Shown here: in pieces, positions 1 to 63,004 of the stretch
Position numbering within the stretch: the first letter of the stretch is position 1
How the letters are laid out: the number at the start of each line of letters is the position of its first letter
Assembly: GCA_977020255.1 (NCBI GenBank)
Contig: CDROCS010002069.1
Coordinates: 62,001 to 126,000, forward strand
Direction of reading: 5' to 3'
DNA: 64,000 nt
Source: Obrimoposthia wandeli
Taxonomy: Eukaryota
Translations under genes and position numbers: made by a program
The notes under the pieces: generated by a model
What the model was told of the DNA's origin: nothing
The model's database searches: none
What the model saw: the letters and a program-made list of their open reading frames with translations, nothing else

Positions 1-3000
1 ACTTTCATCTTTAAATTTTTCTATCGCTGTATTAAGCGTCGTATAAAGCGGATGGGTTTTTGGAAATTTCGAGGTATCCAACAGTCCATCAGCAATCATA
101 GCAGGTAACAGTGATTCTTGAACATTTACATTATTACACTTCAAGAAAAAGCTATCAGTGTCACCTGCTATAATTCTAATGTCGCAGTTAAATTGAACTC
201 GATATTTCTCCAACTGCTCATATTGTAGCTCATACATACGAAGTTTGCTTAAATCTAATACCGCCTGGCCCATGTAACTAGGACGATCCAAAACAATATT
301 TTCCTTATCCAGTAAAACTGCAATAAGGACCGTATCGATTTCGATTGTCCTACGAAAGTGGGCTTTACTGCAATAGGTAACCAGCTTCTGTGGAGTATTA
401 CAAATCCGGAGGTTAATTCTTTTCATCAGATTCTCAATGAGTTTTCCAAATAAAGAATTCACCTTCAGTTTACAATAATCCCGCTCGAAATCTGTTGTAG
501 CCGCAGCTCTTTTGAGAGAATTATCCTCAATATATTTTGAAAAAACATTAGTTTGTTCAAACCGTATTGCTCTGTATACAAAATCTACCTTAGCACCAAG
601 TCTAACGTACATTTGTAGCAATCTAGAATGCACAACATAATGTTTCTTAGGGTAATGTGTTAATAACAATTTTTCAGTCTTACACCCTGGTGGACGCTGT
701 TTAATTGGAGCAAGGGGAAGATCGTCGAATTTATTATGAAGCTCAAAGGGAATGGATAAATCTATTTCCAATAAATGAGCGAAGCGACTACAGGATAAAT
801 CTACTGATTTTAACCTGGAGATAATATTCCCCAACTCTAACCGATCAGTCACCCAGGAAAAGTTACCACAAGGTAAAAACTGGGACATAGCTCACCCGTA
901 CAAATTGTTTACATCAATGTACAAAAGTTCTGTACCATTGATGGCGTCCACGCAGTGTTCATTAACAAATGTCATACCCCCGCAAATCCCAGACCGGAAG
1001 AGTCGGTACATTTCTGGATCCTGTATTAGCTCGACTCGCACAACGGGAGCAGAAGAAGAAGCCGGACGAAGCAGGGATTTGAAAGCACTTGCGAAAGTCA
1101 GTCCTGGAAATAAAAACATTTATTAAAATCATTGTGAAAATCATTACTTTGAAAATCATCTATCTAACAAAGACAGTCACGCATCTATATTGCAAATACT
1201 TGCATCTTTATGTAATCAATAGTAACATTTATTCTTATACATGTATATATATATATATGTGAGTATCTAACAAAGACAGTCACGTACTGCATCTATATTG
1301 CAAATACTTGCATCTTTATGCAATCAATAGTAAGAAGTACTACATTTATTCTTATACATGTATATATATATGTGTTAGTGTCTAAAATTAGAAAAAATTA
1401 GAAAAATACAAACCAGGGATGGAGAAGAAATTGAGTGGCTCCAATCCATCGTCAGCAATGGCCTTGGTCCGGAATGTTGTAAACACGTCTGCTAGAAGGT
1501 AGACGTCCATCTTCATATAGACCAGCATATAATCCCAGAGCGATGAGCAGCCGCTCTGAGTCCAGACCATCTTCGCCATCTCATATTGTACTGGCTTGAT
1601 CTTTTCATCCCACTTCGGCGGTAAGCTGGTGATTGATCGAAGAGCAGTCTTTGATACTGCCATATCGTATGGGAAGATTCCCTTGGCGCTCACCAGATGT
1701 TGCGGGAAGACCGAATGTGTAAGAGGAGTCACACCCAGGTTTTCCACAAGTTTTTCTAAGCTGCTGTTCAAAAATTGAAGGGAATCGATGAAACGTATAC
1801 AGACTCCTCCAATATACACCATCATAGCCTGGAATTTCTCTGTTGATTGAGGTATAACAGATACATTCCAGTCGGGAAACTTGCATAGTGCGTGCTTCAA
1901 TATGTGGTGCATGTCATAACCCATAAGATTGTGAAAAATGACGGGAAAAGATCGATTGATTCTCCTTGATAAGTTGCATTTCGTATGCGCTGCTCCCAGG
2001 TATTCGCCAGTCATGTGATCGTGATCTCGTACCTTGTTTGCGAGTTTCTTCTTACACAGATAACAGATTCTTGCTGCATTGAAACTCGATACCTGTTCCT
2101 GTGTGAGTTGTCGCATCACCTCGATCGCATGCTTCTTGTACCATGGGAGTACAACCTCTTTCGACAAGTCCTCTTATTTCTGCAAAAAGGATACCACACA
2201 AGATTCCCCGGTAAAGACCGAGTAATCATGTGTATACCCTCTCGTGGCTGCAACGGGAGACATGAGCATACCGGCCGAGATTGGAAGCTGAATCTGATGG
2301 TGGATTCCATGCGGCGGTAGCACAGCCTCAGAAGTCCGCGTAAACAGCAAAAGGCGGAGAAATCGTTTTTGAAAAGTCCTTAAACTCAATATGCTTCTCT
2401 GTAGGCATTAAATAAAGCGTTGTATGATCTAAATTCATCCTACAGAGCGGAACGTGTTTGGCGTAACTTATCGGACTACGGAATCCATGAAGACACTTAT
2501 GGCACCAAGTACACCGAATGCAATTAGATACACCTTTGTTCCTATAATTAAGCAGCCTATTGAGTTTAGGAATACCGACATAATGAAAATTATCATTATT
2601 TTCTAAAAGGAGAAGATTGATTGGCTTAGCGTCTGGGTTTGTGGTTCTGTAAATGACATCCACATAGGGATTTTTGAAGATATCTCCATCTGTGTGCACA
2701 TTAGAGAACCTATTGAATGTAAATACGTTGATTGAGAGAGATGGATTCTTTCTCTCAAATCGCGGTATATTACATAAACGCATCGGCATCTCATTCTCAT
2801 CAAAAACTAATTGACTCAAAAAGGCATCATATTGATTAACCCGATGAGGATTAGAGCGAAATACTTCGCGGAAAAGTAAAGATAAGATACTGTAAAGGAA
2901 GCAAAAAGCGTTTGAGTTCTTCACATTGATAACGCAATGTGAGAGTGCTAACTCAGATGGATTAGGTATATAACTACTTCCCTGGAGATAGTTCATTATT

Positions 3001-3879
3001 GTTGTTTTAGTCACAACAAACGAAATCTCCAGGAAGCGGTTCACTACCCAATTACTGCTACTTTGAGAATAATTCTCAATCTTCTTGTTGATTCCATATA
3101 CTCCCGCATCTATAAACCCCTCATCTATGGGGAGCCCTCTATTGGAAAAATTTCAAGCGCGTGTTTCTTCAATATTGGAAAATTCAACACGCACCCCGAA
3201 TTGAACCTTGCAAGTCGCAAACTTGCTGACTGTGTCCCTTAAGCTAGTCAAAAAGGGATACAGGAACTTGTAAATCGATTAGATTGTCATTAGAAACATC
3301 TAATGACAATGTCTCAATCGTGCCCCGAAGACTAGTCTTACGCTTAACAGCATCAACCCTGGAAAACTTCGCAACAGAGCTACCTGAAGTGGGCATAACA
3401 CTTCTCTTGCGGGTAGATGCTGGTAACGGCGCGGGGATCATACCAACTGGAGGAGGCATAACTGGAACCATTGGTGCAGCAGATGGTGGCGAAGCAACTG
3501 GACTAGTAACTGGAACAGCAGCAATTGGGGTAGATACTGGGACAGCAACAATTGGGGCAGCAATTGGCGAAGCAGCAACAACTGGACCAGCAACCCGAGA
3601 AATAGTAGCAGATCTATTCTGAAAGATGGCCTTCTTGCCACGTTGCTGGAAATGACGAAGATGGACACAATGACGCGCCACAAACTCCGGCCAATCAATC
3701 TCCTCCGCGGAGAGACATACTGGACATACGTAGAATTGTTGTCCGTTGAACTTCTGTCAAAAGTAGCTCTTCATTTTTCCGTCACATTCCTTGTGACTCT
3801 CCTCAAAGCATAATTCTTTGTTCATATTGCAATTCTAGAAAGAAATAAATTAGCAGAAAAATAACAATAAACTTACCAT
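1..3879 (-). pseudogene. polB: Protein-primed family B DNA polymerase, copy A. Predicted exons 3877-3879, 1414-3834 and <1-1103
   Basis: Motifs YADF, DHDHMTG..CN, IFHNLMGYD, FIDSLQFL, KGIFPYD and IDVNNLYG*AMS. The C-terminus matches 58853-60064 (KLKVNSLFGK, IAGDTDS). Stops at 3757-3759, 3153-3155, 2174-2176 and 892-894. Frameshifts near 3250 and 2330. Confidence 0.93.
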
Positions 3880-4010
3880 TTTCAATTTCGTTTATAATAG
3901 GGGATTATTTGTTGATTGATGCTTGCTTATATACTATTTTCGAGCTAGTATTAAGCCAATCAGATTCATTCATTATTTAAACCAACCAGATTAATTTAAA
4001 ACAGAATAGT

Positions 4011-4520
4011 TTACTGACAGATGTGAGTAGTTGAATTTTCATTAATATTTAAATAATCCAAACTAGCTGCAAAGCATTTCTTGTATGCACAATGCTCGCC
4101 ATGTTTAATATATGAACAATTGATATTTGATGAATTTAATTGTTTTAATGTTTTCGAGTAATTTATCACTCTAAATTCAGGAAAATATTTATTGATTGTC
4201 TTTATTTTAGCTCCATTATTTTCATCCAAAACATAGAAAATTGATTTGGATACATCACAACCACGTTTTATTTCCTCAGTTATTTCTTGTATCTTGAAAT
4301 AACTATTACCATCAACTAGTTTTAGTCGATGGTAATGCTTAATGAGATATCTATTTATTTTTCTTGATTTTCTATTCATCATGTCCCATATGGGTTGCAT
4401 TTTAAAAACATAATGTTTAGGATAGAAGATTGCATTCACATCCATTAAACATAGTTCTTTTATTACATATTCAGTATTATTATCAATAAAATCTTCAAAA
4501 TCAATAAAATAAACAGCCAT
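4011..4520 (-). CDS. DEDD/DnaQ-like exonuclease-fold protein with C-terminal Cys/His cluster
   Basis: N-terminal YFIDFEDF..YVIKEL resembles ExoI, and the C-terminus has C..H..HCA..C. Intact 169-aa ORF. Family assignment is by motif only. Confidence 0.55.
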   Translation of the reverse strand: MAVYFIDFEDFIDNNTEYVIKELCLMDVNAIFYPKHYVFKMQPIWDMMNRKSRKINRYLIKHYHRLKLVDGNSYFKIQEITEEIKRGCDVSKSIFYVLDENNGAKIKTINKYFPEFRVINYSKTLKQLNSSNINCSYIKHGEHCAYKKCFAASLDYLNINENSTTHICQ

Positions 4521-4556
4521 TTTTATAGCAGTAATTTTATTTGATATTGTTTATAT

Positions 4557-4934
4557 CTATTGTTTATGCTTTAACCAAAGCAGACAGAGTTGTCCACATG
4601 ACTGTGTTAAAATATTTAGATAATGTTTCTTACTAAAATGTACTTTCTTTCCAGAGTCAAGTACTGTAGATACTAATTTAGAAGGGTAATATATCCCAAA
4701 GGGGTCAAAAACAAAGATTTCATTTTCTTTAACATGTATTGCAATCCAATGTTCACCACGCAAATTAGATGAATGTGTATTGATTACATATCCACCTAAA
4801 CGAGTCAAAGAGGGGATATGATCAAGACTGTAGACTCCATTGAAACGCGAACCGAGTAGTTTTCTTCCGCTTTTTGTTATCTCGTCCGAACTAAAATATA
4901 TATTAATTAATAAATTCAAACTGACTTACTTCAT
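4557..4934 (-). CDS. Adenain-like cysteine protease. Predicted exons 4930-4934 and 4557-4890
   Basis: Catalytic H (GEHW), D (FDPFG) and Q..C (TQSCG). ATGAA|gtaagt...ttttag|TTCG gives MNSDEIT. Confidence 0.92.
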
Positions 4935-4963
4935 TTATATCTTCTTTATTGTTTTCATTCTGT

Positions 4964-6193
4964 TTATACTAGTACTGTTCCTCCCTTGGTAATTTGAACC
5001 TCAGAATCGAATACTCCATAGATTATAATATTAGTAGGATGTTCAAGTGCTTTTAAAAACTTGATTTCTACTTTCAAATTTCCCTGTTTAGGGATTTGAG
5101 CTTGATTAATATCGAAATCAGGAGAGAGAACAAATGTGAACAGTGTATACTTGTCCTTGAAATCAGTCATTGAAATTCCAATATTAGCATCCTTATCCAA
5201 ATGACCAAGATTTCTAATTAAAGATTGCACATAAGAAAACACATAATCATTATTTTCAAAGTTATTCGTATAAGATTCTTGATAATCAATATTTCATGCA
5301 AGTTTAATTGAACTCACATTCATGTGTCCAAATTGAGAAACCTCATTTTTAGACTCACCTCCATAGGTAGACGTGTTTTGGAAAGCAATTAAAACAAAGT
5401 TTGGAAGTTGCATATCACCAAAAATCTGATTCTTGTAATAAGATAGTGCCCCCGTAGGGATAGCGTGAGAAACAAGATTAGTTTTTCTAATAGGATAACA
5501 TGCATTTTGCTTCTCCAACCCTATTCAATGTGCAACAAGTACAGATGGTTCCACCTTTACTCTACGAACCAGCAGTTTTGCTTCCGTAATCTCAATTGCG
5601 GTTTTAATAGTATCGTCGCAAACAACACTAAAACCTACTGGATTTCTCTTCATTCGAATATGTGCACTTACACCGGGTAAAAGATACTTTGGTTGCTTAA
5701 AGAAATCCAAATGGAGACTCCCATAAAGTGACAATACTTTAGATTTCGCAATCGAAGCTGTTCTTCTTTTTTCATCATTGTCAAACCCAATTGCATCAAG
5801 ATTAATCAATTTCGTATCATTACCGTAATTCAACAATGTTTCAATCATTGCTTTATGACTGTAACTAGTATTATTTCCCTCAACTTTCACATTATTGAGA
5901 CTGAGAATCACATCCTTGAAAAGAGTATGCAACATGTAATTAGCTGATTTGATATCCATATCATCATCCAAATCACATCCACCTTCCTTTGTAACTTTCA
6001 ATTTAACGAGAAATAAACTATCATTCAAATCAAGATATTGAGTATTGGATCCATTAATATTGAATTCTAAATCCGGAGAAGATGTCCCGTTAACCGTATT
6101 TGTCGGAAATATTTCTTCAAAACTAGCACTATCAACCACAACCTGAGGTATAGGTTTATCGAATATACACAATTCAGTTTTAGCACAACTCAT
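4964..6193 (-). pseudogene. Major capsid protein (double jelly-roll), about 409 codons with two in-frame TGA
   Basis: ORFs 5525-6193, 5294-5518 and 4964-5242 lie in one frame separated only by TGA at 5525-5527 and 5294-5296. Polinton MCP-like motifs ELCIFDKP, YLDLNDS, FFKQPKYLLPGV and YTLFTFVLSPD. Confidence 0.9.
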
Positions 6194-6555
6194 TACTTAA
6201 AAATTGTTCCACCTAGTTTCAAACGTTTGTTTATACCCGATGCTTTAGATGTTTTCTTACGTTTATAACCACTTCCCTTTTGAGTTTTCTTTTTCAAAAA
6301 TTCAGCTAGACTTGGTGAAATTTCATTCACCTGATCCAAGGCTGCATCCTTTAGTGTGGGAAGAAATTTCTCATCACTAGACAAGTATTTTGATCCAACA
6401 TTAGCAATAAATTTCCCGAGTAGCTTGAGTAGTGGGAAAGCAAAGCGACCAAAAACCTTCATCCATCCTGATCCATACTGTTTTCCGGTAAAATAAGGCA
6501 AATCACCTCCTTGCATCGGTTTACTATATGCATCGATTATACTTGAATCAATCAT
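6193..6555 (-). CDS. Small basic putative virion core protein
   Basis: MQGGDLPYFTGKQYGSGW and QKGSG motifs, Lys-rich tail, position between penton and MCP. A diverged homolog lies at about 25760-27095. Confidence 0.75.
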   Translation of the reverse strand: MIDSSIIDAYSKPMQGGDLPYFTGKQYGSGWMKVFGRFAFPLLKLLGKFIANVGSKYLSSDEKFLPTLKDAALDQVNEISPSLAEFLKKKTQKGSGYKRKKTSKASGINKRLKLGGTIFK

Positions 6556-7574
6556 AATTTACGAAAATGAACCGTTAAACTTGTTTTAGCTCCGTAAGCA
6601 AATGTAATTAATCTTCCAGAATCATTACGTATATTAACTTCAATATTGTTTATAGAAGAAGAACTCACGGGAATATACATTGGATTTTCAATTGGAATAT
6701 GTATAACATCACCATACTTGTGCTTTTCCTGTTGAACCCAAATTGCTTTAATTAAGGGAAGTTTCCTTCTTCCTACGAATATTGGTTCGGTAATACTCGT
6801 GTAGATATAAATCTGATTATATGCATTAGTCATTTTAGGAATAATCTTTGCTTTGAAAACCTCATTTTTATTTTCAAATTCATTTTCATCAAAACCGATA
6901 ATTGAGGCTAATGATTTATCCAAGATGATTTTATCAATATTGGATTTCAATTTGAAATGAATCAATTTATTAACTAGTTTAAAGTTTTCAAATACATTTG
7001 GTAACACTGTTTTAAAATGTTTACACATACTTTTGCTATCAGCAAAAAGAAAATCATTGGGAACTGAATATATTTTCCTCTCGCGTTTAACGAATCTGTT
7101 TTTTATCTTGAATGTAATTATCGGATACTTGACATGATTATCCATAATTTGTGAAACTGCATGCTTACCTATTTCAACTTTAGGCGGAAATCCATATTGT
7201 TCTGCAACAATTTCATCATTAAAAACTATTTCAAAATTATCCCCTTTTCCCATAATTTGAATTCGATTCTCTTTATTTAAAAAGATTGTGAAATCATCGC
7301 CAGCCTTAATACGAGCCAAATCCATTTGACCCTTATCAAATAGTAAAGTCACATCAGTTACTTTATCAGCTTCACGTTGAGTAATATATTCAATCTCAGT
7401 TTCACTTTGAATAGATAGAGAAGAGTAATTGAAAGAAAATTCCGTAAGAGCAGCTTCCCAACCACCAGGTAAATTGATTGAGCTTTGATAATCAATACTA
7501 AAACTATTAGCAGTATTATTCGGTTGAGTTAATGGCGAACCATTACTTGGTAATACAACATACATAGAGTTCAT
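6552..7574 (-). CDS. Minor capsid protein (penton)
   Basis: N-terminal YVVLPSN..PNNTANSF..WEAALTEF and C-terminal IEVNIRNDSG..TVHFR. The ATG at 7574 overlaps the integrase stop (ATGA). Confidence 0.88.
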   Translation of the reverse strand: MNSMYVVLPSNGSPLTQPNNTANSFSIDYQSSINLPGGWEAALTEFSFNYSSLSIQSETEIEYITQREADKVTDVTLLFDKGQMDLARIKAGDDFTIFLNKENRIQIMGKGDNFEIVFNDEIVAEQYGFPPKVEIGKHAVSQIMDNHVKYPIITFKIKNRFVKRERKIYSVPNDFLFADSKSMCKHFKTVLPNVFENFKLVNKLIHFKLKSNIDKIILDKSLASIIGFDENEFENKNEVFKAKIIPKMTNAYNQIYIYTSITEPIFVGRRKLPLIKAIWVQQEKHKYGDVIHIPIENPMYIPVSSSSINNIEVNIRNDSGRLITFAYGAKTSLTVHFRKL

Positions 7575-8583
7575 TCTATTTGAGAAGCTAATATCCAACT
7601 AGGTTCAGTATATCCATGCCACTTAACATGATATTGTTTATGCTTTCCTCTACTTTTTGTCTCTAAAATTTCTTGGATTCTATATACATTTGGTTTCTCA
7701 GGCAAGACTTGTAATTCCTCATGATAAAATTTACCCGTGATTACATTATTGGTTTCATCCTCAATGAAATACATTACCGGCATACGTTTATTATCCATTT
7801 TAGTTATACGAAATACTTCATCGCTCCAATTCTCTTTGAAATTCTTTATAAAAGGAGTAGTACTAATTTGAGAAATACGTACATAATCACCAACTTTATA
7901 CTTGGGTTTCCGCGCAACTTGACTTTGGTTACGGCGTTGCCAAATTTCCATAGCATTCTCATCTGTAACATCAACGGGTCTCTTTCGGTCTAATGATTGT
8001 ATGCATGTATTATTTGAGGTAAAACAGTAACCCAGGACTTATTTCCCTGCTTTGTGAAATACCTTTTCAAACGATCTCTCAATGTTCGATTAAAACGTTC
8101 AACTAAAGCGGCTTTATATTGGGAAAATACTGAGTAATGATTAATATTATGTTTTTTCAATAGTGTTTCAACATGTTTATTATAAAACTCCTTTCCACTA
8201 TCCGTTTGGAAATTTCTTGGTTTTATTTCTTTAATCAAAAGCTTCATTGCGGCTAAAACATCGGTACCAGACTTAGACTTTAATGGAATAGCTCGTGCGA
8301 ATCTGCTAAAGACATCAACACAAGTTGAAATATATCGATATCCGTTGTTAATACTCGCATACGGAATCATTTCCATCAAATCTGCTTGCCATAAATCATT
8401 CGGGCCGCTCGTTTTGTATGATCTCGTTGGGAACCGACGTCTCATTGGTTTGTTTAAGCTGTAAGCTAATTGATTTCTCAACCACGCCTGAGTTTCCTGC
8501 TTTGTCTTCTTTGACTCTTTTGCTAATTTTGAAACCCCTGTGTAACCAACGGGATGACTTGGATCGAACCATATTTTCTCCAT
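7571..8583 (-). pseudogene. int: Retroviral-like DDE integrase with C-terminal chromodomain, frameshifted near 7990
   Basis: WQADL, FQTDSGKEF and VERFNRTL catalytic motifs. The frame jumps from YNH to DRKRPVDV, consistent with a small deletion. Chromodomain-like YHVKWHGY..PSWI. Confidence 0.93.
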
Positions 8584-8680
8584 TGCAGCAAGACGATTTG
8601 ATTTTTAAATTGAATTTAGGAATAGATGGAAATGATCCCATATATAAATTCATATTATTGATTCGAATTTATGTTTATAA

Positions 8681-9103
8681 TCATCGGTTCATTAGTCTAC
8701 TAGCAAGTGCACCAACTATTGAGCTAATAATTGGTACGAGAAATCCTAAAAATCCACCACTTTGCTTATAAAGCAACTTACGTTTACCGATTCGTTGTTT
8801 GGCATGAAACAAAGCAAGTAGAGGTTTCTTATGCCGATTCAGGTTAGCCTTGACAATTATTTTACCAGAAACTATTTTCTGTATCATATTAAGTAAATCA
8901 TCAATTACAAAAGTAGGGAATGATTTAAGAATAGCTGGGCGGCGAATAGCAGGTGCACGCATGAGAGAATTGAAATAGGCAATATTCCTAGATTTCTTAA
9001 CAACAGTTCTTTTCGATTTTTGAGCAACCATTTTCCTTGCACTTAAAACTGATTTAATCAATTTTTTAACTTCGGGTTTAACAGTTTCCTTTTTAAAATT
9101 CAT
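8681..9103 (-). CDS. Basic Polinton structural protein ending in a QSGG-FLGFLVP amphipathic segment
   Basis: Lys/Arg-rich 140-aa ORF. The QxGG motif followed by a hydrophobic helix resembles conserved Polinton structural ORFs. Confidence 0.7.
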   Translation of the reverse strand: MNFKKETVKPEVKKLIKSVLSARKMVAQKSKRTVVKKSRNIAYFNSLMRAPAIRRPAILKSFPTFVIDDLLNMIQKIVSGKIIVKANLNRHKKPLLALFHAKQRIGKRKLLYKQSGGFLGFLVPIISSIVGALASRLMNR

Positions 9104-9750
9104 CTTCTCAAAACTGGTTTCTTTGTTTGTTTATAGACGGTTATTCCCGATGGATTGAATACATCAGTTCTAACTCTAAAGTCATCGGGACAATCTTGAG
9201 TAAAATCAATAAAAATGTATCCATGAGGAATAGTAGTTGCATCTTGAAATGAATCAATTAAAAACTTTCTATTATTCGGGTAAGCTTGTCTTGAAACAAA
9301 ATCAACAACCGTCTGATCACGTGGATTCTTTAAGAGAACAAGGTAATGTACATTCAAATTACGAGTTCTATGGTTCCCTCCTTGATGAAATAGATTTTGT
9401 GTGATGAAAATAACAGTTACTTCCCGATGTCGTGCTATTTTAGTGAATAAATTATTGAAATCACTCTCTTTATTTGCTTCTTGATATAAATCATCAATAA
9501 CAATAACATCATGTCGTTGTAATCGCTCAGACCAATTATCATCGAATCCATTAATGACTTTTATATTTTTGATTTTCTTAAACTCTTTACTGGTTAAACC
9601 AGCTTCTCCATCTCCTCCCTGATGCCAGTATATTTTATTAAACTTAAAACTAAAGTATTTATTATTTTGCAGTAATTTACATACAAAATGTGTTTTCCCA
9701 CTACCACTAGGACCTACAATCTGAAAAACTGAATTATTTTTTAAGTTCAT
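9100..9750 (-). CDS. FtsK/A32-like genome packaging ATPase
   Basis: Walker A GPSGSGKT, Walker B VIVIDD, then ARH and ITQN motifs. Intact ORF. Confidence 0.95.
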   Translation of the reverse strand: MNLKNNSVFQIVGPSGSGKTHFVCKLLQNNKYFSFKFNKIYWHQGGDGEAGLTSKEFKKIKNIKVINGFDDNWSERLQRHDVIVIDDLYQEANKESDFNNLFTKIARHREVTVIFITQNLFHQGGNHRTRNLNVHYLVLLKNPRDQTVVDFVSRQAYPNNRKFLIDSFQDATTIPHGYIFIDFTQDCPDDFRVRTDVFNPSGITVYKQTKKPVLRR

Positions 9751-9810
9751 ATTAAAAATATTAGATTATCGGGATAATGTTTATAAAATAAAACTATTTA
9801 AAATATTTTA

Positions 9811-10077
9811 TTACGAAACATCCAGCAACAAACAATAAAAAAAACTCTTCTCGTAGAAAAAGCTCCTTTTCTCTTCTTTGTTTGCGAGTTTCTTCTGATT
9901 GTATCCCTGAATGAGAAGATTGACTGCCTTGTCGTGCACCATTCTTCTTACGTGCTCCTCCAGGGGTAGATTTGAGACATCAATGAGTTGCAGGACATCT
10001 GGTTCTATGACATTCTTCGAGATGAAGCTCTTCACCGCCTTGTCAACATCTTGCTTGAAATAGTTTGGAGTAGACAT
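9811..10077 (-). CDS. Hypothetical 88-aa protein
   Basis: ATG at 10077 is preceded by the GTATATAAGC box (10107-10116) also seen upstream of polB. Confidence 0.55.
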   Translation of the reverse strand: MSTPNYFKQDVDKAVKSFISKNVIEPDVLQLIDVSNLPLEEHVRRMVHDKAVNLLIQGYNQKKLANKEEKRSFFYEKSFFYCLLLDVS

Positions 10078-10144
10078 AATGATGATGAAGAAGTAAAAAG
10101 TAATCTGCTTATATACTATACATCTGAAATCTGATTGGTTAATA

Positions 10145-10250
10145 AATACACTGACTAATAAAGACACTAAAGACACTAACTAATAAAGACACTGACTAAT
10201 AAAGACACTGACTAATAAAGACACTGATTAATAAAAACACTGATTAAAGA
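10145..10250. repeat. Tandem repeat of about 16 bp (ACTAATAAAGACACTG), about 6 imperfect copies
   Basis: Directly visible. It lies between the phosphatase-like gene end and the next promoter. Confidence 0.85.
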
Positions 10251-10266
10251 TAAAGACGAATAAAAT

Positions 10267-11266
10267 TTACACATGATAACGATTAAAAATACGTATTTGA
10301 TGAAGCATAGCTTCATTAGGAGCAGCAATAGTCCGTTTAGCTTTAACAAGATTCGAAGCAGCAGTAACACCAATCGAATGAGATAAAAATGCAATAACAA
10401 TGCAAGCAGCATGTTAACTACCATAATGACCACATACTAAAATCTTACCACCATTTTCGATAGTTTCTTTAATTATATTATTAGTCTGTTTATAATACTT
10501 CATTATTGTTTCTCCTAATTTTGAGTTTACAAAGACAGAAGTATATTTTAATTTCTTATAAGATATTTTATCCAGTATAGATGTATTGATTACATGAGTG
10601 AAATTGGAGTTCAAAAGATTAGTTTCATCAAACCCATCTCGATAATTACCAATATATGATTGATTTACTAAAATCTCACTCATCGCTGTTTTGTTTAACT
10701 TTTCTACATTAAGTTGAGTAAATCTAGCACTAAACAAACAATCAAAAAGATGGGTCATGTGGTTCATTTCCATACTCGAAGCATGAGCTATTATGGGTTC
10801 CATAAAAGCCAAAGCATTTAAAAAATCTATCCGTCTCTTATCTTCAATAATTGGATCTATAATAATTTCTTCTTCTATCGTCACTTCATCAATAGTTTCT
10901 TCTCTTCTTATAACTGTTGTTGTTGTTGCTGGTGGTGATGATGTTGCTGGCGATGATGTTGCTTCTGGTGCTGAATTGATTTTCTCCAATTTATCAATTC
11001 CGAGTCAATTTAGTCTTATATATTAAACAAGGTTTGATTTCATTGGATCATCAGTTTCATCATATGATTTGATTGGAGTATTATTCAACCTTTCCATTGT
11101 ACTTAACATCTCATGTAAATGTAGTTGATGACGTAACCTAAACAGTTAAATAAACTACATATAAATATTACTCATGATTATTTTTCCTTATTAAAGCATT
11201 GAGAATAACTGAAGCAAGATCTTTTAATGCATCCTGAACCTCTTTACATTCAATAATTTCATCCAT
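10267..11266 (-). pseudogene. Dual-specificity-phosphatase-fold gene with a degenerate active site. Predicted exons 11172-11266 and 10267-11137, three in-frame stops
   Basis: Reading through the stops gives SEIL..SYIGNY..FTHVIN..GGKILVCGHYGS*HAACIVIAFL..VKAKR..APN..LHQI, matching the DSP pattern. A phase-2 intron at 11138-11171 joins the frames. Confidence 0.8.
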
Positions 11267-11307
11267 TTTATGATAAAGCAAATCAAATATTGTTTATAAC
11301 CCATGGA

Positions 11308-11379
11308 AAATCTATTTTAGACCACATTACAACTATTTGCAACTATTTGCAAGTAATGACATGTGATGTCTTTGTCTTT
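11308..11379. promoter_or_regulatory. Block of about 72 bp duplicated at 13047-13119, containing the TGCAA-N4-TTGCA palindrome
   Basis: Near-identical direct repeat. Each copy sits just upstream of a gene start. Regulatory function is inferred. Confidence 0.6.
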
Positions 11380-11937
11380 AAGATAAATCTATTTTTAGCA
11401 ACATTACGACTATTTGGTTGTTTAGGAAATAAATAACACAAGTGTGAAGATCTATATTAAACAAAATACATTCAATCAGATATTCATAATTTAAAGATTT
11501 AACACCGAGTATCATAATTTTCCCGCTAGCAAAAATGTTCACGCATAGGGGATTGTATTTGACGTATCGAAGTCCCGGGAAGATTTCTGGCTCGTAAACA
11601 GCTTCCAATCCCATACTCTTGCTCATCTTGTTTAGGTTTATTGATGTTTCTAGATTGCTGCTGAGACTGATTGATTGGATTCTTTCTATTTTTATATCAA
11701 AAGGAAGACTGCTTTCATCCAGCACTGTTTTGCAACCCATTATTCTGCATGTACCTAAATTATAATTATATATAAATGTAAAAATAAATTACCAGATTTG
11801 AAAATGATAATAGTGTAACCATCACACTTGAGTCGATACTGATGAGGCTTCGAAGTTCGAAATGGTAAGTGTTGAATGTTACTTACAACCATTCCGTTGT
11901 AATTAATATTCACTAATTTGATATTGTGAAGTAGCAT
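11378..11937 (-). CDS. Divergent TATA-binding-protein-fold protein, 173 aa. Predicted exons 11793-11937 and 11378-11754
   Basis: Removing the 38-nt GT-AG intron gives IIIFKSGTCRIMGCK (repeat 1) and YEPEIFPGLRY..VNIFASGKIMILGVKS (repeat 2) in one open frame. Confidence 0.85.
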
Positions 11938-12000
11938 TTATGATTATTATAAACTGATTTCTTCTATTTATACAATTTGAACATCTATTTTTAGATTTGC

Positions 12001-13002
12001 TTAATTGCCTATGCTATGAAATCTAATATTTCTTACTTGTCTAATAATAATTGTCTTGCAATATGGACATGTAATAAAACGATCTGAACATTTAATACAC
12101 GTGTTTAAGTGACCGCATGGTAAAAATGCCACGGAAATCGCATCGCTCATGCAAACAACACACTCGGGATTTGGTAAGAGGTACTCGAGATAATTTATAC
12201 GATGTTTTGGTTCAGATTTTATTTCTAAAAATCTTAAATCCGTTATAAACTCATATATAGAATCATATTTGTTACCGAATGTTTTAAACCTATTAACTAA
12301 AACGGCTTTGATTCTATCATGGCTATAATCACGTTTCAGCAAAACTATTTGACGAGTTTCCATCTGAGCATCAATTTCATCATTACTAATATGATATTCA
12401 ACAATACATCCGTTCTTGATTCCCATACTAGATGCTTTACAATCTCGAGTATGAAAGATTCTTTCGGGCATAGTATCAATAAGGTCAAGTCGGGGTACTG
12501 CTTTCCGACAGAAACAACATCGATAAGAATCATTCCAAATATATACATTATCGAAAATCGATAATGTAGGTATTTCAATATCATTAGAATAATTATTGCG
12601 CACAATAGCTACTTTATCCATTGGAGTTGTATCAAAATCAATTTGGGTGGTGTTGGAATCAATTATTGGTACGTTTGAAACATTCATTTTCAAAACAAAC
12701 GGGCATCTTGGGAAAAATAGCTGATGTCGCTTCATTGGTTTCAGATAGTACTCCCATCCCGATATTCCTCCCTGACAGTAAATACACTTTACATTATCTT
12801 TCGAATCATCGTGCTTGTAAAATCCTGCTTTTGCTAAAGCTTTCTTATCGGCTAAACCAGTAAACTTTGCTTGTAACGATTCTAATCTTCTTTCTTCATA
12901 TATCATATTTTCATTTATTCTTGAAATATTATCAAAACGCCGTCGTCTAATAGTGAGTTCTCCGTTTTCTGAAACATAATGTGCAATAAATTTAGTAGTC
13001 AT
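12001..13002 (-). CDS. iap: Inhibitor of apoptosis protein: BIR, degenerate BIR-like, UBA-like and C-terminal RING
   Basis: RLESL..AKAGFY..VKCIYC..GW..H..FPRCPF (BIR) and CVVC..FLPCGH..CIKC..CPYC (RING). Intact 333-aa ORF. Confidence 0.93.
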   Translation of the reverse strand: MTTKFIAHYVSENGELTIRRRRFDNISRINENMIYEERRLESLQAKFTGLADKKALAKAGFYKHDDSKDNVKCIYCQGGISGWEYYLKPMKRHQLFFPRCPFVLKMNVSNVPIIDSNTTQIDFDTTPMDKVAIVRNNYSNDIEIPTLSIFDNVYIWNDSYRCCFCRKAVPRLDLIDTMPERIFHTRDCKASSMGIKNGCIVEYHISNDEIDAQMETRQIVLLKRDYSHDRIKAVLVNRFKTFGNKYDSIYEFITDLRFLEIKSEPKHRINYLEYLLPNPECVVCMSDAISVAFLPCGHLNTCIKCSDRFITCPYCKTIIIRQVRNIRFHSIGN

Positions 13003-13046
13003 AACAAAATTGAATGATGAAATTGTCTAGCTTATATAGTAAGTGA

Positions 13047-13119
13047 AAATCTATTTGTAGACCACATTACAACTATTTGCAACTATTCGCAAGTAATGAC
13101 ATGTGATGTCTTTGTCTTA
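13047..13119. promoter_or_regulatory. Second copy of the 72-bp block, between divergently oriented iap and the + strand gene
   Basis: Matches 11308-11379. Flanked by TATA-like boxes at 13030-13039 (minus) and near 13120 (plus). Confidence 0.55.
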
Positions 13120-13154
13120 GTATAAACAATATTTTGATAATGATTTTATTGAAA

Positions 13155-13859
13155 ATGGATAATCAAAATAATCAAAATAATGAAAGTAGAGCTAGTACAT
13201 ACATAGGTTCTGGTAGTAATTTATATTCTAATATGAATTATAATAGAAATAATCAGAGAGAAAATATTAATCCATCAAGTCAAACAATAACAAGTCCTAC
13301 GCGCGTAACCGAAGAACGTGAGACCTTTAAGGATATGACAAATACTAGACGATAAACAAGAATGTTAACCAATTGAGACTAATCGATTTTCATAAACAAG
13401 AATATCGACCAATTAGAATCGAGCTTTGGAGGATAAACAATTGAATATTTCAATTTATAATTGTCAATATGAATTTCGAAAAGCTATATCAACCTATGCA
13501 TACATATTATGGATATGAGATGCACTTTTTGAAGAAAGCTCATAACTATAATTTTATTTTTCTTGTCAACATCGAGCCGCTAAAAATTTGATTTTGAAAT
13601 ATCAAATTTGACTTCTGTGGATAAAGAGAGAATCAATATTCTCTTGACTCAATTCGGAATCAACTATGCGCTTCAGGAAAACAAATTCGTAATCAAAGGA
13701 TCAACTGCCACTTTCATGCATGAGAATGGAACAATATACGAAGCACCTCCTCCTAAGCTAGAATGGATTATCTCAATCAGAATTCAAGGATGCAAGATCG
13801 GGCCCAGTGGATTGGAAACACCGATATGGAAAATAATTGATGCTGTTAGAGTTGACTAA
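13155..13859 (+). pseudogene. Frameshifted gene or genes of unknown function
   Basis: Asn/Gln-rich ORF followed by coding-like broken frames that end in the 83-aa ORF 13608-13859. Confidence 0.45.
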
Positions 13860-13980
13860 TAAATTTTTGTGTCTTTATTTGTATTATTTTATATATATAA
13901 ACAATAGTGATACTTTAATATTTATTATGAAAATGACTAAAAAACCTACTAAATAATTAAAGACTAAGGTTAAAAAGACT

Positions 13981-14292
13981 ATGAGTAAAAATACTATGAG
14001 TAAAAAGAAAATCATGGAGGGTTTGGGTATTCATATGATGGCGGCAAATCTTTTAGGTAGATGGTTTGGCGGAGTTGATAAAAAAGCTATAAAGCACAAA
14101 AAGAATGTGGATTATTTGAGAGGTATACAAAATCAGAAACGAGTGCAAAAAGGAGATGGTATACAAAAAGGGGATGGTATGCTTGATATTTTTGTAAAAT
14201 TAGATAAACTTACAAAAGCATTTGAAAAGGATCCTAGTGCCTATCTTGGTCCAAAACTAAACTTTTTAGCAAACCAACCAAAAACTTTGTAA
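13981..14292 (+). CDS. Lys-rich protein with two QKGDG motifs, putative core protein
   Basis: 103-aa ORF. An upstream in-frame ATG at about 13928 is cut off by one TAA. The motif resembles QKGSG and QSGG in the structural ORFs. Confidence 0.6.
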   Translation: MSKNTMSKKKIMEGLGIHMMAANLLGRWFGGVDKKAIKHKKNVDYLRGIQNQKRVQKGDGIQKGDGMLDIFVKLDKLTKAFEKDPSAYLGPKLNFLANQPKTL

Positions 14293-14304
14293 TTACATTG
14301 CAGT

Positions 14305-15108
14305 ACGTCTTTGTTAGACACTCACACACATATATATATATATATATATGTATAAGAATAAATGTTACTATTGATTACATAAAGATATATATACTTGTAA
14401 TACTTGTTACATAAAGATGCAAGTATTTGCAATATAGATGCGTGACTGTCTTTGTTAAATATAGGAACGTTTAAACATTATTATCAAATTATATAATACT
14501 TTATTTTATAAGTAGATAATTTAAATAAATAATAAAACACACACACGATATGTATTTTGTTGAATTGGTGTTAATACAGTCTTTAGATAAAAAGATATAT
14601 AGATTTAAAGTATGTTACTAAAAATAGAATATTTTTGACCTCACCATGACCTTAAGTTGTCCTCATAACGTCATGACCTTAACTTGACCTTAACTTGCCT
14701 TGACCTCATGAGGTCATGACCTTAACTTGACCTTAACTTGCCTTGACCTCATGAGGTCATGACCTACATCTTGTCCTCATCGTGACCTTAAGTTGTCCTC
14801 ATGAATTTAAATAAAAAATCATGTGTACTCGGGAGAAATTTGACCTACATCTGTCATAAAAAATTTGAGTTCAAAAATTTTCGCGCTAATTTCAAAAATT
14901 TTGCGCAAATTTCAAAATTTTCATGGAAATTTCAAACATTTTTAAAAAATTTCGCGCAAATTTCAAAAATTTTGACCTATATTTCAAATTTTTCGCGGAA
15001 ATTTCAAAATTTGACCTAAATTTTTTGTCCTCATCAAAAAATTTGACGTACATTTTTGACTTGTCCTCAGGGGGGGGCTTTGTTCCAGAAGTGCCACATC
15101 TACCTACT
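14305..15108. repeat. Right terminal inverted repeat region of copy A
   Basis: The outer ~48 bp and about 14305-14805 are reverse complements of copy B 57743-57790 and about 57998-58620. The intervening part is unique and AT-rich. Confidence 0.9.
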
Positions 15109-19782: not shown

Positions 19783-20360
19783 ATGGTGAAAAAAGGTTTA
19801 TTTATTTTATTTGCTTGTATGTAAGTATATATATGTCTTTAAGTTTTTATAGCTCTTACTAAAAATTTGACACAAATTCATGTATTAATTTGGTTCTAAG
19901 AAAAACATTTATCGAAGGTGATCTTAATTACGCATTTAAATTTAATGAAAAAATATTTGTTAAATATAAAATAGGGACCTTAAATTTGTACTATCTATCA
20001 ATTAGGTGAACGACTCAATAGAATGATTAAAAGCAGATATGAAATGATCATTAAAGCATGGAACAATATCACAATATTCTATGGTTTGGTAAATTTTCTG
20101 GCTTTTTAATAAAATATTACAGCTAGGAAACATTCATAAGTGCTCCAAATATTGAATAGAATATCCCAATGTGCCATGAGACGGCATAAATTGGCACAAC
20201 CAAACTAAAGAAGGATCATTCTGTAAAACAAGTATTAATGCCATTATAATCGGAGTTTTATTGGTTAAGCACACTATTTCATTGAACCGTCTTTATAACG
20301 TTCTACTGTCAAATTTAGTACGAGAAAATATGATATTTTCAAAAATGAATGCTCATATCT
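19783..20360 (+). pseudogene. Possible secreted-protein gene fragment, NRF-6-like N-terminal domain, with in-frame TGAs
   Basis: Signal-peptide-like MVKKGLFILFAC, tiny GT-AG introns, and spliced KAWNNITIFYGL|LGNIHKCSKY*..GSFCK. Resemblance is weak. Confidence 0.28.
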
Positions 20361-23790: not shown

Positions 23791-23909
23791 TTGAAGTGAA
23801 AATCTCCGTACAAATCAATTTATTCGAAGACAATTCCGAAAAGACCCTACGGACCCTGCATCGGACATCCCACTAGTCGCAGTAATTGGTAAGCCGATCG
23901 ACTAGAGCA

Positions 23910-57742: not shown

Positions 57743-58464
57743 AGTAGGTAGATGTAGCACTTCTGGAACAAAGCCCCCCCTGAGGACAAGTTCAGGTCAA
57801 GTTGAGGACAAAATTTTTTAAGGTCAAGTTGAGGTCACGGTGAGGTCAAAATGTAGGTCATGACCTCATGAGGTCATGGGAAAACCTAGGTCATGACCTC
57901 ATGAGGTCATGACCCCCCTATGCTCAGGACAAAGACATTTTGAGCATACCCCCGCCCCCTTGAGCACAGTTTAAGATCACGATGAGGACATGACCTCATG
58001 AGGACAACTGAAGGTCACGATGAGGACAACATGTAGGTCATGATCTCATGAGGTCAAGTCAAGTTAAGGTCAATGTACTTTAAGGTCAACTTAAGGTCAT
58101 GACGTCATGAGGACAATGTACTTTAAGGTCAACTTAAGGTCATGACGTCATGAGGACAATGTACTTTAAGGTCACGGTGAGGTCAAAAAGATTCTATTTT
58201 TAGTAACATTCTTTAAATCTATATATCTTTTTATCTAAAGGTGGTATTAACACCAATTCACCAAAAGACATCTCGTGTGTGTGTGTGTGTTTTATAATTT
58301 ATTTAAATTAAATTATCTTCTTATAAAATAAAGTATTATATAATTTGATAATCATGTTTAAACGTTCCTCTATCTATCTAACAAAGACAGTCACGTACTG
58401 CATCTATATTGCAAATACTTGCATCTTTATGTAATCAATAGTAATAAGTACTACATTTATTCTT

Positions 58465-58511
<47 letters not shown>

Positions 58512-58720
58512 AGTGTCTAACAAAGACAGTCACGTACTACATCTATATTGCAAATACTTGCATCTTATGTAATCAATAGTAACAAGTACTACATTTATTC
58601 TTATACATGTATATATATATATATATATATGTGAGTGTCTAACAAAGACAATTATCAATACCTACAAAGACAGTCACGTGTGTCTAACAAAGACAATCAT
58701 CAATACCTATAAAGACTGCT
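57743..58720. repeat. Left terminal inverted repeat region of copy B, with AGGTCA array and subrepeats of about 125 bp
   Basis: About 18 exact AGGTCA hexamers in 57790-58190, followed by CTAACAAAGACAGTCACG units. Confidence 0.9.
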
Positions 58721-58852
58721 GCACCTATATTGCAAAAACCTGCAAATTTATGTAAATACCAATAATTTTAAAATAAAGACAAGTATTTCTAACACATATA
58801 TTCCTTAAAATTACAAAGGAGAATAAAAATATGTACAACACATATAAAAAGT

Positions 58853-61800
58853 TTATACAACCTCGTCCGGGTATAAAAAGTGACCATAGGCGACTGAACA
58901 GTTTTTCTCCACCCACTTGCGCTTATCATCACTACTGCTTAAGGCAATTTTACTTAACCTTACAGTAAAAAGTTTATGATTTAGCGAGCTTATACGTTGT
59001 TGTTGTACACGCTCGCTAACGCCACTCTCATATACGGCTAAGTAATTAGAGTGCCTAATACTCGTCTGTCGGAGACTAATACCTTTCGCTCTCATCTGAG
59101 ATTCACCTTCTGTAGTCTCTAGGCTATATGATTTTGGTCGTAGAAAAATCCCTTGCCTATAACTAAATAATCCCTTACTCTCATCTTTAAATTTTTCTAT
59201 CGCTGTATTAAGCGTCGTATAAAGCGGATGGGTTTTTGGAAATTTCGAGGTATCCAACAGTCCATCAGCAATCATAGCAGGTAACAGTGATTCTTGAACA
59301 TTTACATTATTACACTTCAAGAAAAAGCTATCAGTGTCACCTGCTATAATTCTAATGTCGCAGTTAAATTGAACTCGATATTTCTCCAACTGCTCATATT
59401 GTAGCTCATACATACGAAGTTTGCTTAAATCTAATACCGCCTGGCCCATATAACTAGGACGATCCAAAACAATATTTTCCTTATCCAGTAAAACTGCAAT
59501 AAGGACCGTATCGATTTCGATTGTCCTACGAAAGTGGGCTTTACTGCAATAGGTAACCAGCTTCTGTGGAGTATTACAAATCCGGAGGTTAATTCTTTTC
59601 ATCAGATTCTCAATGAGTTTTCCAAATAAAGAATTCACCTTCAGTTTATAATAATCCCGCTCGAAATCTGTTGTAGCCGCAGCTCTTTTGAGAGAATTAT
59701 CCTCAATATATTTTGAAAAAACATTAGTTTGTTCAAACCGTATTGCTCTGTATACAAAATCTACCTTAGCACCAAGTCTAACGTACATTTGTAGCAATCT
59801 AGAATGCACAACATAATGTTTCTTAGGGTAATGTGTTAATAACAATTTTTCAGTCTTACACCCTGGTGGACGCTGTTTAATTGGAGCAAGGGGAAGATCG
59901 TCGAATTTATTATGAAGCTCAAAGGGAATGGATAAATCTATTTCCAATAAATGAGCGAAGCGACTACAGGATAAATCTACTGATTTTAACCTGGAGATAA
60001 TATTCCCCAACTCTAACCGATCAGTCACCCAGGAAATGTTACCACAAGGTAAAAACTGGGACATAGCTCACCCGTACAAATTGTTTACATCAATGTACAA
60101 AAGTTCTGTACCATTGATGGCGTCCACGCAGTGTTCATTAACAAATGTCATACCCCCGCAAATCCCAGACCGGAAGAGTCGGTACATTTCTGGATCCTGT
60201 ATTAGCTCGACTCGCACAACGGGAGCAGAAGAAGAAGCCGGACGAAGCAGGGATTTGAAGCACTCGCGAAAGTCAGTCCTGGAAATAAAATCATTAATTA
60301 AAATAATTGTGAAAATCATTGTGAAAATCATTACTTTGAAAATCATCTATCTAACAAAGACAGTCACGTACTGCATCTATATTGCAAATAATTGCATCTT
60401 TATGTAATCAATAGTAACAAGTACTACATTTATTCTTATATATGTATATATATATATGTGTGTTAGTGTCTAAAATTAGAAAAAATAGTAAAATACAAAC
60501 CAGGGATGGAGAAGAAATTGAGTGGCTCCAATCCATCGTCAGCAATGGCCTTGGTTCGGAATGCTGTAAACACGTCTGCTAGAAGGTAGACGTCCATCTT
60601 CATATAGACCAGCATATAGTCCCAGAGCGTTGAGCAGCCGCTCTGAGTCCAGACTATCTTCGCCATCTCATATTGTGCTGGTTTGATCTTTTCATCCCAC
60701 TTTGGCGGTAAGCTGGTGATTGCACGAAGAGCAGTCTCTGATACTACCATATCGTATGGGAAGATTCCCTTGGCGCTCACCAGATGTTGCAGGAAGACCG
60801 AATGTGTAAGAGGAGTCACACCCAGGTTTTCCACAAGTTTTTCTAAGCTGCTGTTCAAAAATTGAAGGGAATCGATGAAACGTATACAGACTCCTTCAAT
60901 ATACACCATCATAGCCTGGAATTTCTCTGTTGATTGAGGTATAACAGATACATTCCAGTCAGGAAACTTGCATAGTGAGTGCTTCAATATGTGATGCATG
61001 TCATAACCCATCAGATTATGAAAAATGACGGGAAAAGATCGATTAATTCTCCTTGATAAGTTGCATTTTGCATGTGCAGCTCCCAGGTATTCGCCAGTCA
61101 TGTGATCGTGATCTCGAACTTTGTTTGTGAGTTTCTTCTTACACAGGTAACAGATTCTCCAATATTGGAAAATTCAACACGCACCCCGAATTGAACTTTA
61201 CAAGTCGCAAACTTGCTGACTGTGTCCCTTAAGCTAGTCAAAAGTGATACAGGAACTTGTAAATCGATGAGATTGTCATTAGAAACATCTAATGACAATG
61301 TTTCAATCGTGCCCCGAAGACTAGTCTTACGCTTAACAGCATTAACCCTGGACAACTTCGCAACAGAGCTACCTGAAGTGGGCTTAACACTTCTCTTGTG
61401 GGTAGATGCTGGTAACGGCGCGAGGATCATACCAACTGGAGGAGGCATAACCATTGTAATTGGTGCAGCAGATGATGGTGAAGCAACTGGAGGAGGCATA
61501 ACTGGAAGCATTGTAATTGGTGCAGCAGATGGTGCAGCAACTGGAACAGCAGCAGCAATTGGAGTAGATACTGGAACAGCAGAAATTGGGGCAGCAATTG
61601 GCGAAGCAACAACAACTGGACCAGCAACCCGATCTTGAGAAATAGTAGCAGATCTATTCTGAAAGATGGCCTTCTTGCCACGTTGCTGGAAATGGCGAAG
61701 ATGGACACGATGACGCGTCACAAACTCTACCCAATCAATCTCCTCCGCGGAGAGACATACTGGACATACGTAGAATTGTTGTCCGTTGAACTTCTGTCCA

Positions 61801-61916
61801 AAGTAGCTCTTCATTTTCCAGTCACATTCCTTGTGACTCTCCTCGAAGCATAGTCGTTTATTCATATTGTAATTCTAGAAAAATAATAAATATAGAAATA
61901 ACAAGAAACTTACCAT
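58853..61916 (-). pseudogene. polB: pPolB copy B. Predicted exons 61914-61916, 60501-61874 and 58853-60278
   Basis: Same intron positions as copy A. Lesions are a deletion of about 1.1 kb at about 61158, a 1-bp deletion near 60259, and TGA at 60068-60070. Polymerase motifs B and C are intact. Confidence 0.93.
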
Positions 61917-62071
61917 TTTCAATTTCGTTTATAATAGAGTTATTTGTTGATTGATGCTTGCTTATATACTTTTTTCAAGCTAGTATTAAGCCAATCAGAT
62001 TCATTCATTATTTAAACTAATCAGATTCATTTAAAACAAATCAGAATAGTTTACTGAAAGATGTGAGTAGT

Positions 62072-62560
62072 TTATTTTTCATTAATATTTAAATAATCCA
62101 AACTAGCTGCAAAGCATTTCTTGTATGCACAATGCTCTCCATGTTTAATATATGGACAATTGATATTTGATGGATTTAATTGTTTTAATGTTTTCGAGTA
62201 ATTTATCACTCTAAATTCAGGAAAATATTTATTGATTGTCTTTATTTTAGCTCCATTATTTTCATCCAAAACATAGAAAATTGATTTGGATACATCACAA
62301 CAACGTTTTATTTCCTCAGTTATTTCTTGTATCTTGAAATAACTATTACCATCAACTAGTTTTAGTCGATGGTAATGCTTAATGAGATATCTATTTATTT
62401 TTCTTGATTTTCTATTCATCATGTCCCATATGGGTTGCATTTTAAAAACATAATGTTAAGGATAAAAGATTGCATCCACATCCATTATACATAGTTCTTT
62501 TATTACAAATTCAGTATTATTATCAATAAAGGCTTCAAAATCAATAAAATAAACAGACAT
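62072..62560 (-). pseudogene. Exonuclease-like gene, copy B, with premature TAA
   Basis: Collinear with 4011-4520. YPK has become YP*. Confidence 0.6.
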
Positions 62561-62597
62561 TTTTTATAGCAGTAATTTTATTTGATATTGTTTATAT

Positions 62598-62975
62598 CTA
62601 TTGTTTATGCTTTAACCAAAGCAGACAGAGTTGTCCACATGACTGTGTTAAAATATTTAGATAATGTTTCTTACTAAAATGTACTTTCTTTCCAGAGTCA
62701 AGTACTGTAGATACTAATTTAGAAGGGTAATATATCCCAAAGGGGTCAAAAACAAAGATTTCATTTTCTTTAACATGTATTGCAATCCAATGTTCACCAC
62801 GCAAATTAGATGAATGTGTATTGATTACATATCCACCTAAACGAGTCAAAGAGGGGATATGATCAAGACTGTAGACTCCATTGAAACGCGAACCGAGTAG
62901 TTTTCTTCCGCTTTTTGTTATCTCGTCCGAACTAAAATATATATTAATTAATAAATTCAAACTGACTTACTTCAT
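62598..62975 (-). CDS. Adenain-like protease, copy B. Exons 62971-62975 and 62598-62931
   Basis: Translation is identical to copy A, with the same 39-nt intron. Confidence 0.92.
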
Positions 62976-63004
62976 TTATATCTTCTTTATTGTTTTCATT
63001 CTGT

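Follow-up and report, generated by a model that had tools for sequence, protein, structure and literature searches.

Predicted spliceosomal introns in the polymerase, protease and TBP-like genes of a Polinton family in Obrimoposthia wandeli

GT-AG Segments in Polinton Genes

A stretch of 64,000 nt from Obrimoposthia wandeli (assembly GCA_977020255.1, contig CDROCS010002069.1, positions 62,001 to 126,000), called the window here and numbered from its first letter, contains a Polinton designated element A. Its genes for the family B DNA polymerase (polB), the protease, and a TATA-binding protein (TBP)-like protein are interrupted by GT-AG segments which are very likely to be excised by the host spliceosome (rough probability 0.87), and the element is a complete but decayed copy of a high-copy Polinton family. 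The genes are considered very likely to be spliced because related families keep, lack, or enlarge the segments at the same sites, although Polintons are usually portrayed as lacking introns. Based on these sequence comparisons, four of five segments are well supported as introns. The fifth is a candidate with weaker support.

The five segments are on the minus strand, are 42, 310, 39, 34, and 38 nt long, and have a GC content of 8–25% (Table 1). All of them start with GT and end with AG, as described in an earlier note made from the sequence alone, which counted five introns in four genes. Its assignment of two segments to polB and one each to the protease and TBP-like genes holds. The segment it placed in a phosphatase-like gene is instead in a separate, unassigned small open reading frame (ORF). 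A second copy of the same family, copy B, was said to have the polB and protease introns at the same positions, and they were found there at 60279–60500 (222 nt), 61875–61913, and 62932–62970.

Copies were searched for in the host genome of 1.35 Gb, and 13 loci of 20–40 kb holding several Polinton families from the same genome were compared. Among the 30 best-matching loci of each region, both GT and AG are intact at the polB start (30/30), in the long polB segment (28/30), at 11138–11171 (30/30), and in the TBP-like gene (30/30). For the protease segment, both are kept in 38 of 38 copies. Copies without GT-AG boundaries, the case that the note had raised against itself, were thus looked for with this outcome. 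These best-matching copies are 94–98% identical, so the dinucleotide counts are weak evidence alone, while the comparison between families is strong evidence. The chance of GT plus AG at fixed positions is ~0.003 per register on the minus strand. At two sites, the positions of GT and AG are fixed because intronless relatives set them.

The segments have a T-rich 3' end in addition to the GT donor and the AG acceptor, as expected for U2-type introns. A branch-like motif is seen in some segments only. Removal of the segments restores colinearity exactly at the polB motif and in the TBP-like gene, and approximately at the polB start. The ratio of nonsynonymous to synonymous substitution (dN/dS) between families A and A3, both of which bear introns, is 0.05–0.22 in five exon pieces: 0.05 and 0.17 on either side of the polB motif intron, 0.09 and 0.07 on either side of the TBP-like intron, and 0.22 in protease exon 2. 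Therefore, the split genes made protein after the arrival of the introns.

The polB Motif Intron

The long polB segment interrupts the SIPG motif. The comparison of spliced polB with homologues, proposed in the note as a check, indicated that the motif is contiguous on removal. The search, which favoured long single ORFs, found 243 homologues and listed 120, of which the best 60 were tested; in 39 of them a single residue, G, separates the two exons. Another 17 are mis-anchored, yet the motif is visibly unbroken, and 4 are without the anchor.

In copies, this intron is 296–330 nt long. Of 29 parsed copies, 9 have an open frame of 474 codons beyond the intron, and 6 of these have 460 open codons ahead of it as well. 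The introns of these 6 copies are 299–330 nt long, with all three phases represented. Nine shared indels are in the 310-nt intron versus none in 2,290 nt of flanking exon, and private indels number 10 per 100 nt in the intron versus 0.8–1.6 in the exon. In the low-complexity N-terminal part of polB, 7 shared indels were called relative to the decayed window copy.

All elements that carry the motif intron fall into a single clade (Shimodaira–Hasegawa (SH) support 1.0), sister to the intronless family B (SH 0.96; not to be confused with copy B). This topology fits a single gain, which is likely to have occurred on the stem of family group A. The polB motif site and the corresponding site in the intronless TBP-like gene of family C resemble the proto-splice site (C/A)NG|G.

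The motif intron is 41, 128, 139, 202, and ~310 nt long in five lineages. It is likely that it grew from ~41 to 310 nt, partly by uptake of the subterminal repeat of the element itself. Two tandem units in the intron match this repeat (Table 1); the 128-nt intron found in a sister subfamily, whose downstream protein is 97% identical, does not contain them. The uptake is likely to have been a template switch or ectopic conversion inside the element, which would be tolerated as splicing removes the repeat. At 1382–1413, an inner AG derived from the inserted repeat is ~32 nt past the donor in 28 of 29 copies, and could be a second acceptor.

The Protease, TBP-Like, and polB Start Introns

The protease intron is at one site in five of five families, which share 53–80% protein identity, and its length is 37–42 nt. 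Sixty-nine of 76 loci fit ATGAA-GT..AG; the remaining 7 are damaged, offset, or mis-indexed. No contiguous intronless protease start was found among the 76 loci. The interiors of the introns are on average no more similar across families than shuffled sequences. The protease intron is probably old in the clade.

Families A, A3, D, and E carry the TBP-like intron; in B and C it is precisely missing. Families B and C form one clade in the TBP-like tree (SH 0.998), which was midpoint-rooted with no outgroup row and suggests loss. On these sequences, the intron changed state once, and precise loss in two families would fit at least as well as gain. The earlier note had this lineage gaining introns in core genes. 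The presence of spliceosomal introns in replication and maturation genes is supported, and gain fits the polB motif; for the TBP-like gene, loss fits at least equally. Inheritance of the intron from a host gene is unsupported, as the matching motif is uninterrupted in the host TBP genes at L196, L198, L199, and L200.

Every Polinton family inspected (A to E) has a compact TBP-like gene, ~150 aa long, and ~19,800 first-look TBP candidates were counted genome-wide. No paper on TBP in Polintons was among those listed by the literature search. Two divergently oriented TBP genes are side by side at L196 (G000:C238:871991-875236). L199 and L200 are two more intronless two-repeat TBP-like genes elsewhere, one of which adjoins Polinton remains.

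In families A, A1, A3, and D, polB has a phase-0 intron in its first three codons; family B has none there. Family D has two additional candidate introns in the polB N-terminal region. In 30 copies, polB intron 1 is 42 or 43 nt long. Several homologues have Cys at residue 3–5, matching the spliced polB start.

The Small ORF and the Phosphatase-Like Gene

Past the 34-nt segment, the frame continues for 37 codons to a stop at 11023–11025, ahead of the phosphatase-like gene; 22 of 25 diverged copies retain this stop. In 29 of 30 copies, the phosphatase-like gene opens with a start codon of its own. Contrary to the note, the segment is thus no intron of the phosphatase-like gene and belongs to a separate ORF of 69 codons. 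When diverged copies are located by anchor, GT is kept in 23/25 and AG in 23/25. No intronless homologue of the small ORF was found, and its exon 2 has no usable match in Atlas and none in Pfam or NCBIfam. The 34-nt segment is best treated as a candidate intron, with weaker support than the other four.

Active dual-specificity phosphatases carry the catalytic motif HCx5R. In the phosphatase-like gene, the motif reads V[CY][GS]HYG in the 6 matching loci of 7 scanned. Because the catalytic Cys motif is missing in these six loci, the protein is likely to be a pseudophosphatase.

Host Introns and Points Against Splicing

Host introns were estimated heuristically; 54 were measured, 2 of 56 gaps are unresolved, and some are mis-called. 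The smallest is 39 nt, 15 of the 54 are 39–53 nt, and the short class spans 39–63 nt. The introns of the element are at or just below this short end, which agrees with the size relationship stated in the note. Also as anticipated there, plain ORF calling fails on these genes: ORF callers truncate them, and the database proteases P0121–P0123 begin within or after the equivalent region.

Several observations weigh against splicing. A composition filter found two further minus-strand candidate sites within seemingly intact frames, indicating that AT-rich GT-AG stretches arise by chance. The polB homologue search, by favouring long single ORFs, biases the outgroup toward intronless genes. For the protease, no intronless homologue was retrieved to fix the junction directly. 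The polB start intron shifts its position by 1–2 codons between families, and an in-frame Met three codons past it in family A makes it dispensable for opening the frame. The 34-nt segment is shorter than any of the 54 sampled host introns, and exon 1 of the small ORF is without codon-level selection.

Proposed Origin of the Introns and Alternative Explanations

The elements would be transcribed in the nucleus by host RNA polymerase II (Pol II) from compact TATA promoters. During long residence in hosts that splice AT-rich introns of ~40–50 nt, minimal introns may have arisen at (C/A)NG|G sites and been fixed in replicating master elements, after which they would be neutral but indispensable. 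They would be retained since exons must be joined. The introns at start codons most likely persist by aiding expression or by rare loss.

Alternatively, the start-codon introns may be a splicing gate, by which the type or state of the host cell decides on their removal and limits maturation and replication to permissive cells. The third intron of the Drosophila P element, whose removal is regulated, is a precedent. Each of the five families has the protease intron at codon 2, whereas other introns vary in occurrence, unspliced readings stop at once (Met-Lys-stop for the protease, 9 codons for polB), and the inner AG of the long polB intron offers a possible second acceptor. However, a GTAA donor in phase 2 yields a stop automatically, the intron interiors have no motif conserved across families, and an abundant intronless polB family is present in the same genome. 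A gate is unlikely on this balance. A wider proposal includes it: this Polinton clade may be a spliced nuclear virus-like element, in which the old and fixed protease intron at codon 2 is a host-splicing gate and the polymerase gains, loses, and inflates mini-introns, including capture of its own terminal repeat. That proposal is tentative and rather unlikely.

Another explanation is that the polB start acceptor doubles as a trans-splice site, where a flatworm spliced leader ending in ATG supplies an in-frame start Met. All four polB start introns are in phase 0, three of them have ATG directly ahead of the donor, and flatworm leaders ending in ATG have been reported (PMC12582326). The four start sites may nevertheless be one inherited intron. 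The TATA box, ATG, and consensus donor are all kept, as cis-splicing requires, and the protease intron is in phase 2, where the ATG of a leader would not match the frame. Trans-splicing at this site is therefore improbable.

It is quite improbable that the introns derive from an introner, an intron-generating transposon. There is a precedent in dinoflagellate eupolintoviruses (PMC12166617), and introns of similar sizes are at many sites here. A recent introner origin is rejected, as 0 of 132 between-site intron pairs had z>3 versus shuffles, and no terminal repeats were seen by eye in the short introns. The traces of an old origin would be erased, so this dissimilarity speaks to a recent introner only.

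That the segments are disabling insertions, with family A spreading non-autonomously on proteins from intronless relatives, fits the decay of the window copy, the intronless polB family, and the polymerase-less derivatives, but is very improbable given the purifying selection on both flanks between intron-bearing families, the retention of GT and AG while interiors and lengths diverge, and the lack of any intronless protease in 76 loci, which leaves no evident helper for that gene.

Element A and Other Polintons in the Genome

Element A shows the hallmarks of Polintons/Mavericks: a terminal inverted repeat (TIR) match of ~770 nt with a 6-bp target site duplication (TSD), GTGTGT; a protein-primed family B polymerase (PF03175 on three exon pieces in Pfam); a retroviral-type integrase; and a packaging ATPase. 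The protease was accepted as the adenain-like protease of Polintons; PF00770 is below the cut-off here, and the homologue P0123 has PF00770. The copy contains stops and frameshifts in several genes.

Table 1. Features of element A and copy B in the window.
Feature	Position	Strand	Remarks
Polinton element A	1..15108	.	Starts 1,186 nt ahead of the window; ~16.3 kb; AGTAG termini and GTGTGT TSD on both sides
polB exon 3 (polymerase domain)	1..1103	-	Extends past the window start; PF03175
polB intron 2	1104..1413	-	310 nt, phase 1; splits the Gly codon of the SIPG motif
Two tandem ~115-nt units within polB intron 2	1161..1385	-	blastn to 14307-14461, 58372-58620, and the left arm (repeat at the TIR inner edge)
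polB exon 2 (N-terminal region, exonuclease part)	1414..3834	-	Broken here; PF03175 E=1e-11 on 1391-2173; at most 56% identity to homologues
polB intron 1	3835..3876	-	42 nt, phase 0; donor GTAAGT, acceptor TAG, branch-like CTAAT
polB exon 1 (start codon only)	3877..3879	-	TATA-like box ~50 nt upstream
Protease exon 2 (adenain-like C5 protease)	4557..4890	-	PF00770 E=0.0027 (below cut-off); adenovirus protease matches in PDB weak, E=0.8
Protease intron	4891..4929	-	39 nt, phase 2; retained form reads Met-Lys-stop
Protease exon 1 (ATGAA)	4930..4934	-	Pentamer shared by five families ahead of the donor
Putative minor capsid, small ORF, and major capsid genes	4964..7598	-	Kept in all families
Integrase, retroviral-type, with chromodomain	7574..8604	-	PF00665 E=2.5e-14; PF00385 E=0.0016
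Packaging ATPase	9100..9765	-	PF04665 E=4.3e-6, above cut-off
Dual-specificity-phosphatase-like gene	10267..10989	-	No intron seen; PF00782 E=8.8e-6; broken here, own start in other copies
Small unassigned ORF, exon 2	11023..11137	-	Stop, then TATA-like box; dN/dS 0.23
Candidate intron of the small ORF	11138..11171	-	34 nt
Small unassigned ORF, exon 1	11172..11266	-	dN/dS ~1 on 31 codons
TBP-like exon 2	11378..11754	-	PF00352 E=1.6e-12
TBP-like intron	11755..11792	-	38 nt, phase 1
TBP-like exon 1 (start approximate)	11793..11937	-	41-55% identity to the N-terminus in other families
IAP-like gene (BIR and RING)	12001..13026	-	Single ORF; PF00653, PF13920
Right TIR	14406..15108	.	
Polinton copy B, same family as A	57743..64000	.	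Runs beyond the window end; CACGTG target duplication

The genes assigned to the jelly-roll major and minor capsid proteins of Polintons are putative, being named from their position and from the usual gene content of Polintons. They had no match in Pfam, NCBIfam, or PDB, and a single-sequence structure model of the capsid protein reached a predicted local distance difference test (pLDDT) score of 29.5. At 13100–13860, two plus-strand ORFs are in the right arm; one has no start codon and overlaps the upstream frame, and this is possibly another split gene.

First-look candidates in the genome number in the thousands for the element A family and ~20,000–26,000 for the polB, TBP-like, and protease queries, which are not copy numbers. 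The search of viral contigs gave just two weak partial matches. Polintons of different families are nested or adjoining at high density at C868, C1612, C1928, and C988 of G000, several per 20–40 kb at loci picked for holding one. Near-identical young derivatives at C3154, C1346, C1323, C1312, and C2062 of G000 (L264, L265) have the arm with the IAP, TBP-like, small-ORF, and phosphatase-like genes duplicated in inverted orientation at the opposite end. In the one such derivative inspected, polB was not found; the integrase, ATPase, capsid-like genes, and protease are still there. Many dispersed intronless CCT-like chaperonin ORFs of ~550 aa (L181–L194) are also present in the host genome alongside the usual intron-bearing subunits. 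The host is likely to be a flatworm, judged from one gene: a CCT4 exon that clusters with parasitic flatworms on a long branch.

Inspection of the ten closest metagenomic polB loci showed AT-rich GT-AG segments of 40–55 nt at other sites in L096, L097, L099, and L101, and polB as a single ORF in L093, L094, L095, L098, and L102. L096 and L099 have two sites in common, where the alignment with homologues resumes within a few residues; those at the N-terminus are candidates only. Short N-terminal polB exons at L097:80-470 and L317 (C988:399228-399756) seem to be tandemly duplicated with the intron, a possible route to more introns.

Comparison with Known Elements and Implications

Adenoviruses, with their spliced genes, and intron-bearing DNA transposons, the P element among them, are nuclear DNA elements that rely on host splicing, and adenoviruses have a capsid gene followed by the protease, as in element A. 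Adenoviruses use long leaders and alternative acceptors, whereas here single host-sized mini-introns are inside coding sequence.

The closest published case is the introner-bearing eupolintoviral elements of dinoflagellates, which likewise have spliceosomal introns inside Polinton-like elements, ~25% of them in coding regions; these introns are young copies of intron-generating transposons, most of which inserted once the element had integrated (PMC12166617). In contrast, the introns described here have no sequence relationship to one another, are passed on within whole families, and adjoin exons under selection. Nematode Mavericks are also animal Mavericks carrying intron-containing genes, but there it is captured cargo that holds the introns, with the core genes described as intronless (bioRxiv 10.1101/2022.07.12.499685), while here introns are in the core.

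Vertebrate Polintons/Mavericks (eupolintoviruses, adintoviruses) share the TIRs, the 6-bp TSD, the protein-primed polymerase, retroviral integrase, ATPase, and adenain-like protease; element A differs in having split genes for polB and the protease and in its cargo of TBP-like, IAP, and phosphatase-like genes. For intact vertebrate elements, the ORFs are described as intronless ("No introns were observed"), and intron-like gaps flagged by the aligner were counted as decay (PMC8097293). As far as the excerpts go, endogenous mavirus-like elements (EMALEs) have no introns (PMC8547959), cryptophyte Polinton-like viruses have group I introns only (PMC12220804), and surveys of endogenous Polinton-like viruses use prokaryotic gene callers on the ground that these viruses "do not contain introns" (PMC10120064). 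Flatworm insertions of Orthopolintovirales have been noted, with introns left out of consideration (bioRxiv 10.1101/2025.04.19.649669). The consulted passages of PMC8502044, PMC6431247, PMC10175614, a nematode pPolB preprint, and a 2026 mosaicism preprint have no relevant mention of introns in Polinton core genes. No report of inherited introns in core genes of animal Polintons was found in literature searches on Polintons; Repbase entries, subscription papers, and supplements may hold cases.

Surveys blind to introns would record spliced families as truncated or dead, or would overlook them. The introns imply that expression of the polymerase and protease is nuclear and dependent on host Pol II. 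Since a single genome offers many families and candidate copies by the thousand, the gain, loss, sliding, and size change of introns can be mapped on a tree, and therefore the question of intron origin becomes testable in a compact system. If the proposal of a spliced nuclear virus-like element is true, these thousands of copies in one genome would record, as a natural time series, how introns are born, grow, and are lost.

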